Part shown: positions 49,737 to 49,946 of the stretch, piece by piece
Numbering within the stretch: position 1 is the stretch's first letter
Layout: every line of letters begins with the position of its first letter
NCBI GenBank assembly: GCA_013239625.1
Contig: MU053881.1
Span: forward strand, 13,692,373-13,756,372
Reading direction: 5' to 3'
DNA from: Lama guanicoe
Lineage: Eukaryota
Length of the DNA: 64,000 nucleotides
Position numbers and translations under genes: made by a program
The notes under the pieces: model-generated
Seen by the model: the letters and a program-made list of their open reading frames with translations, nothing else
What the model was told of the DNA's origin: nothing
The model's database searches: none

Positions 49737-49946
49737 CACTGATCCTAATCTAGTGGCAGCAGTCGACTTAATTAGCACGTTCTCTACTTTGTCTTCCAGA
49801 TTTTTTATAAAGATATTAAACAAAATGGGACCCAATATCGATCCTTGTGGGACCCAACTGGAAACCTCTCCCCAACTAGACGGACTACCAATTACGATTT
49901 CTCTCTGTATACGGTTAGATAGCCAGTTTTTAATCCATTTATTTGT
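49737..49946 (-). mobile_element. Ancient CR1/L3-clade LINE fragment, reverse-transcriptase core, overlapping the beta2L exon in antisense
   Basis: Minus-strand ORF 49716..49964 reads [65 protein letters not shown]. This is gap-free against the CR1 RT pattern [65 protein letters not shown]. Confidence 0.9.
49800..49913 (+). CDS. GABRB2: GABRB2 alternatively spliced cassette exon of the long isoform beta2L, 114 nt / 38 aa: [38 protein letters not shown] (TM3-TM4 loop insert)
   Basis: Acceptor ttctctactttgtcttccag at 49799 and donor gttaga at 49914; phase 0-0; no stops; peptide matches the 38-aa beta2L insert as I recall it. Not called in this frame by the ORF track. Confidence 0.95.

Follow-up and report, generated by a model that had tools for sequence, protein, structure and literature searches.

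The GABRB2 locus of Lama guanicoe raises the question of where the 38 residues that mark the long isoform of the GABA-A receptor beta-2 subunit came from. A first-pass annotation of this DNA had read the strand opposite the encoding exon as part of a LINE reverse transcriptase (RT) and had proposed that the insert arose by antisense exonisation. We analyzed a 64,000-nucleotide stretch of contig MU053881.1, called the window here, and positions are those of the window unless stated otherwise. Three features define the gene around the exon:

41849..41938 (contig 13734221-13734310), + strand: upstream exon of GABRB2, in which the transmembrane domain begins (PF02932 positions 1-30, E 5.6e-8; limits approximate, from the Pfam match)
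45131..45375, + strand: GABRB2 exon 9, TM2-TM3 and the start of the TM3-TM4 loop (PF02932 positions 30-118, E 1.6e-22)
49800..49913, + strand: exon 10, the cassette exon for the beta2L insert, 114 nt, 38 codons, phase 0-0 (translation IFYKDIKQ...FSLYT; PDB identity)

In the profile search, matches to Pfam Neur_chan_memb (PF02932) flank exon 10 on the same contig and the + strand, which places it inside one Cys-loop receptor gene on that strand; the last PF02932-matching exon lies 14.4 kb past the window end. The match over exon 9 covers 45130-45396. An AG at 45129-45130 and a GT donor at 45376-45377 border this exon. It closes in phase 0 with ...LDVNK and encodes a peptide identical to PDB beta-2 chains at 81/81 residues (E 1e-49, against 1.2e-41 for beta-3). 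Exon 10 is flanked by AG 49798-49799 and GT 49914-49915. Its peptide corresponds to residues 336-373 of the beta-2 chain 9crs_A (38/38 identical), directly contiguous with the residues 255-335 supplied by exon 9. In the genome sequence, exon 11 (MDPHENILL..., after CAG) opens in phase 0, 28.6 kb downstream. Since exon 10 contributes 114 nt between the phase-0 exons 9 and 11, it is a frame-preserving cassette in the TM3-TM4 loop. These observations confirmed that exon 10 encodes the 38-residue insert of the beta-2 long isoform, as the first-pass annotation had held; the coordinates and both peptides given there, 49800-49913 (+) and 49737-49946 (-), also translate as reported, with the minus strand free of stops.

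Two overlapping features were assigned to the opposite strand:

49719..49982, - strand: relic of a LINE reverse-transcriptase frame, 88 stop-free codons (ORF, RVT_1 match, homologues and a gap-free alignment of 43/88 to turtle P0054; stop at 49716-49718)
49734..50006, - strand: widest detectable RT similarity (tblastn of 9 sauropsid and 31 other proteins on the window)

The stop-free frame is therefore longer than had been claimed, at 88 codons. The per-codon table also bears out the exact codon register that had been reported between the exon and the antisense frame, codon boundaries being common to both because 49946-49913 = 33. The residue numbers attached to it, R18 to N55, were incorrect: the exon corresponds to R9-N46 of the 70-residue peptide quoted for 49737-49946 and to R24-N61 of the 88-codon frame, while the count of 38 was right. 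We rejected the idea that the shared register is meaningful in itself, given its prior of 1 in 3 and a second + frame that is also open across the region (49699-49986). Openness by itself is likewise unremarkable, with 56 of the 7322 stop-free segments in the window reaching at least 88 codons; it is the homology that exceeds chance.

The 70-residue antisense peptide matched Pfam RVT_1 with E 2.7e-5 at profile positions 100-143 of 205. The RT assignment of the first-pass annotation was thus supported by the E value of the profile but not by its score, 24.4 bits against a curated cut-off of 29.6 bits, a shortfall from the whole-domain cut-off that is to be expected of a fragment, and we regard the pairwise evidence as decisive. 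A word-indexed search of 5.8 billion proteins gave 31 proteins with E<=1e-3 among 153 candidates (best E 2e-10). RVT_1 was precomputed in 29 of these 31, APE-type endonuclease domains were present in 4, and the top matches were octocoral LINEs, which are non-vertebrate. An exhaustive HMMER search of a 1.8-billion-protein library returned 11,318 proteins with E<=1e-3, of which 337 had E<=1e-10. PDB reverse transcriptases matched weakly (E 0.51 and 0.71), a result that carries no information, since a query of 70-88 residues spans less than half of the 205 positions of the domain and could be expected to score low.

Of 20 proteins looked up from among the best matches, 15 carried an organism name, and all 15 were sauropsid (birds 4, turtles 7, squamates 4); two of the looked-up matches were named 'RNA-directed DNA polymerase from mobile element jockey(-like)'. 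For all 15 sauropsid proteins the alignment to the 88 codons is free of gaps, with 34-43 identities out of 88, and the turtle proteins showed 52-53% identity over 81 residues (tblastn E 1e-20 to 2e-18). The catalytic Y/F-x-D-D motif is absent. The position aligned with FADD of P0054 reads STAA, and other records read TDAT, with one D kept. The minus frame is a decayed RT relic and not an active enzyme.

A resemblance to RT could also arise by chance wherever a coding exon is read in antisense. Stop-free segments of this length occur elsewhere in the window, in-register antisense frames are often open, and the Pfam score is under the curated cut-off, all of which such an explanation would accommodate. 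It does not accommodate the 337 proteins with E<=1e-10 in the 1.8-billion library, the turtle elements that are 53% identical over 81 ungapped residues, or the extension of the similarity into both introns. We therefore consider chance extremely improbable, and the HMMER counts, the gap-free alignment and the genome-wide rank described below refute it in practice. The identification of the antisense frame as a LINE RT fragment is instead upheld by RT-like matches that run gap-free over 88 codons to sauropsid LINE proteins.

The surviving RT coding piece measures about 270 bp. No further collinear RT pieces of the element were found in the 64-kb window by tblastn with the 9 sauropsid and 31 other proteins, and the relic DNA is single-copy in the 2.05-Gb genome. 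When a 93-residue turtle RT core was compared with the whole genome, the exon-10 locus was the best match (E 2.7e-19, 53% over 79 aa, no stop), the next-best locus reached E 3.6e-11 (40%, one stop), and at least 25 other loci had E<=1e-3 (34-55% identity, 14 of them with in-frame stops); these ranks are a lower-bound comparison, resting on the 150 candidates scored out of 2376. Such a pattern marks an old, dispersed and dead LINE family with one unusually well kept piece.

The abundant intact LINEs of this genome belong to a different family, with open frames of up to 1293-1321 aa and about 31% identity to the turtle element. When the full-length turtle element was compared with the genome, 67 of 69 rows were this intact LINE family (28-32% identity) and two were CR1-like relics. 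The same sauropsid proteins showed 19-30% identity to the window's own L1 copy (about 62.3-63.4 kb).

Several other repeat features were seen. The L1 copy of the window, a young member of the abundant family, lies in the same intron as the relic at 62172-62942 (- strand; wider extent about 61.7-63.4 kb), with an RVT_1 match of E 2.5e-47 inside a 1149-aa frame, and its family, with many genome copies that hold 1293-aa frames, looks recently active. Non-significant tblastn matches occur at 1376-1549 (- strand, E 0.5-0.8), to the same RT core region, and at 45391-45570 (+ strand, E 0.03-0.8), just past the exon 9 donor; either could be additional debris of ancient LINEs or a chance match. Outside the relic, 160 bp past the end of exon 10, comes a T-rich tract (50075-50130) with a run of about 37 T. 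The ENA protein P0035 (409 aa), a high-scoring match, consists of tandem repetition of one RT segment in five matched stretches, an assembly or annotation oddity unrelated to exon 10.

The assignment of the element to CR1/L3 draws on the taxonomy of the matches, on a published RepeatMasker label of L3, and on the motif WL..R...VPQGS.LGP.LFNIFI, which we take to be a CR1-type RT core; none of the match labels says 'CR1', and a sister clade such as L2 is possible. An origin from another CR1-like clade (L2, Rex1 or similar), which would leave the exonisation account unchanged, gains some room from a comparison set that holds no clade-labelled references, from best word-indexed matches that are cnidarian LINEs, and from source names that give just 'jockey-like'. 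It is nevertheless unlikely, as the organism-named matches are uniformly sauropsid and the gap-free alignment runs through a 10-residue stretch in which the relic retains K, T, L, and G. Published descriptions point the same way: CR1 is stated to make up about 80% of chicken interspersed repeats (PMC2817409), UCSC RepeatMasker is reported to label the human orthologue of the exon 10 stretch L3 (main text of PMC2741204), and mammalian L3 is equated with CR1 in the text of PMC2394776.

The splice sites of exon 10 can be traced to individual codons of the CR1/L3-type relic:

49778..49799, + strand: polypyrimidine tract and 3' splice site (AG 49798-49799), reverse complement of the RT codons L-E-D-K-V-E-N-V (per-codon table)
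49914..49921, + strand: 5' splice site, ACG at the exon end followed by GTTAGATA; its GT is the reverse complement of AAC, Asn, codon 23 of 88

In the per-codon map, the whole of exon 10 and both splice sites lie within the relic, in antisense. The 20 bases ahead of the acceptor AG include 17 pyrimidines and are the antisense of the purine-rich codons E-D-K-V-E-N-V. The AG itself comes from the antisense of CTG, a Leu codon (codon 62 of 88), which corresponds to the Leu of ...DL... in the turtle element. The donor carries an off-consensus T at +3, in line with occasional skipping of the cassette. Within the insert, RRTT is the antisense of G-S-P-S in the RT frame. Counting from the N-terminus, the second T of RRTT would be the Thr365 of Zhao et al. 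if the signal peptide comprises 24 residues, a site described in their main text as a CaMKII target tied to current run-down (PMC2741204).

We propose the following origin. A fragment of a CR1-type LINE, the mammalian 'L3', lies in the intron that separates exons 9 and 11 and is oriented against GABRB2, with the surviving RT piece spanning the stretch from the WL..R...VPQGS.LGP.LFNIFI core to the former FADD motif. Read on the gene strand, purine-rich RT codons supply the polypyrimidine tract, CTG the acceptor AG, and AAC the donor GT, the insertion presumably preceding the use of these splice sites. Between them lie 38 codons that are free of stops in the phase that exons 9 and 11 require, and their inclusion adds 38 residues, including the RRTT site, to the TM3-TM4 intracellular loop. 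Purifying selection, acting on the insert and on some 33 nt of each intron flank, would then have frozen the nucleotides, and the legibility of the RT frame would be a by-product.

This proposal was compared with the distribution of conserved codons. Identities to turtle P0054 number 25/38 in the exon codons versus 18/50 in the intronic flanks (Fisher p 0.009), and comparison with the majority residue of the 15 sauropsid matches gave 25/38 versus 17/50. Six antisense ORFs from evidently orthologous loci (P0034, P0184-P0187, P0062) are identical or nearly identical in the exon part and almost unchanged in the 11 codons on each side; farther out they diverge, with a frameshift upstream. A seventh antisense ORF, P0044, is 70% identical, with one codon missing in the VPQGS motif. 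Conservation thus tracks the + strand exon and the surroundings of its splice sites, not the RT, which supports preservation of the relic by the needs of the receptor. The turtle insert points to the same strand: alignment showed 37 residues, lacking the Trp of SLWDP with the frame kept, and the lost codon faces the Pro codon of VPQGS, no RT motif being better conserved, which again marks the + strand as the one under selection. The claim of the first-pass annotation that constraint had preserved the relic agrees with the exon-flank contrast, and with the position of the locus as the best genome match of the RT core among the 150 of 2376 candidates scored.

These data also bear on whether the minus-strand frame stays open as a functional, domesticated RT-derived peptide. 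Gene callers did predict ORFs on the minus strand in other records (P0034 etc.), as such a peptide would have it. The 88 codons contain no Met, however, decay has removed the catalytic FADD, records differ by a frameshift in the upstream part, and turtles drop the codon antisense to the VPQGS Pro yet stay in the receptor frame. A domesticated peptide is accordingly a vanishingly small prospect. We conclude with high confidence that exon 10 lies opposite a decayed ancient RT fragment of probable CR1/L3 type, and that it arose by antisense exonisation with receptor-driven preservation.

The exon peptide was found in 24 proteins among 25 candidates, namely GABRB2 of placentals, of a Theria-labelled UniRef cluster, and of turtles. 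The turtle proteins (Lepidochelys, Gopherus, Chelydra, Emydura) showed 83-85% identity to a 41-aa query. Birds were not among the matches in this word-sharing search of 25 candidates, which is weak evidence. According to the main text of PMC2741204, exon 10 occurs in mammals and a lizard and is absent in frog and fish, where exons 9 and 11 are present. The insert in turtle GABRB2 isoforms suggests that exon 10 probably dates to early amniotes, with an origin before the split between mammals and reptiles.

The order of events could in principle be the reverse, with a LINE landing in or near an existing exon or an element capturing host sequence. Here the order is deduced from GABRB2 sequences of amniotes, which leaves such a history some latitude. 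Against it, the entire exon, both splice sites, and both flanks fall in a single gap-free RT alignment, and the published absence of exon 10 from frog and fish genes that have exons 9 and 11 also speaks for a later gain. In addition, the alignment covers the universal RT core, a segment shared by thousands of elements whose hosts range from cnidarians to reptiles, which sets the direction as from element to exon. We judge an exon older than the element very unlikely.

Three turtle isoforms (P0218, P0217, P0213) carry an extra 17-residue insert right after the L3-derived exon (alignment A1 columns 446-462). The chicken long form is attributed to a 51-nt exon in work cited in PMC2741204, and the equal length suggests that the bird and mammal 'long' isoforms may use different exons. 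If the turtle 17-residue insert is the chicken exon, birds would have lost or silenced the L3-derived one.

The link between this exon and L3 is already in print, which settles the literature search that the first-pass annotation had left to be done. In the human gene, a candidate LINE3 of the UCSC browser takes in exon 10 and extends beyond it by 85 bp upstream and by 66 bp downstream (Zhao et al. 2009, PLoS One 4:e6977, PMC2741204), and these limits map to 49715-49979 here, matching the 88-codon frame. That study concerns the human orthologue of the same exon and gives LINE3 a single sentence of its main text, in which we found nothing on strand, the RT core, splice sites from RT codons, or codon register. 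No fuller prior account than PMC2741204 was found in the open literature, with subscription journals and most supplements outside the scope of the search. The L3 origin is therefore not new; the strand, codon, and RT-motif detail alone seems undescribed.

Antisense CR1 exonisation is likewise a class already catalogued, as far as the text of Sela et al. (2007, Genome Biol 8:R127, PMC2394776) goes. By its count, annotated human genes hold 12 exons that arose from CR1. Of these, 8 are antisense, and in 6 the element encloses the complete exon. No CR1 exon was common to human and mouse in that survey, its six orthologous repeat exons being four of MIR and two of DNA-element origin, and GABRB2 does not appear in its text or in one supplementary file. 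The CR1 exons described there share the mechanism and class of GABRB2 exon 10, but the latter is far more deeply shared, across mammals and turtles. The orientation bias of repeat-derived exons is also tabulated in that text.

A second comparison is with Alu. In antisense Alu exons, an antisense retroelement provides the pyrimidine tract, the AG, and a weak donor, giving an alternative cassette. Exon 10 resembles them in that its tract, AG, and weak donor also come from the antisense strand of a retroelement. In Alu, however, it is the poly(A) tail that yields the tract, and such exons are young, confined to primates, and for the most part minor forms. Exon 10 takes its tract from coding codons rich in purines and is itself ancient, with strong conservation.

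Ancient CR1 pol fragments detectable at the protein level, as the relic is, have been collected by Frith (2022, PMC9004415), whose main text reports 204 pre-amniote CR1 protein fossils in human and does not contain the term GABR. For dating, inter-genome alignments that overlapped protein-coding annotation were set aside according to that text, so that a fossil beneath an exon could not be dated there.

Relative to these accounts, the present analysis contributes the codon-by-codon layout, the rank of the relic within the genome, the contrast between exon and flanks, and the turtle evidence on age; it offers a dated and quantified example and does not describe a new kind of biology. We suggest, with a little less than even confidence, that the following is perhaps unwritten before: that the whole beta2L insert, including RRTT, is an in-register antisense RT core and the best-preserved copy of this segment in a mammalian genome, frozen by the receptor; that the exon comes from the amniote ancestor; and that the long forms of birds and mammals may be two exons. 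The locus would make a textbook case of the coding sequence of a selfish element, read backwards, becoming a regulated and phosphorylatable insert of a major inhibitory receptor that was kept for about the age of amniotes. As exon 10 splicing is linked to receptor run-down and psychiatric genetics in the main text of PMC2741204, the repeat-derived flanks are candidate splicing control elements and may have a regulatory role.

By RT-PCR, as described in the main text of PMC2741204, exon 10 is expressed in human, monkey, and mouse brain, and not in rat. We also noted a Logan ORF of 115 aa, P0195, in which exon 9 is joined directly to exon 10, followed by two intronic codons (..LYTVR) and a stop. 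This junction indicates that P0195 comes from spliced RNA of some mammal, and with intron 9 excised and intron 10 still present it resembles an incompletely processed transcript. In the GABRB2 entry P0204 (UniRef, Theria cluster, 529 aa), the N-terminal third does not align with the receptor and carries L1 ORF1-type domains (PF02994, PF17490); this fusion of a LINE ORF with the receptor is probably an artefact of the gene model.
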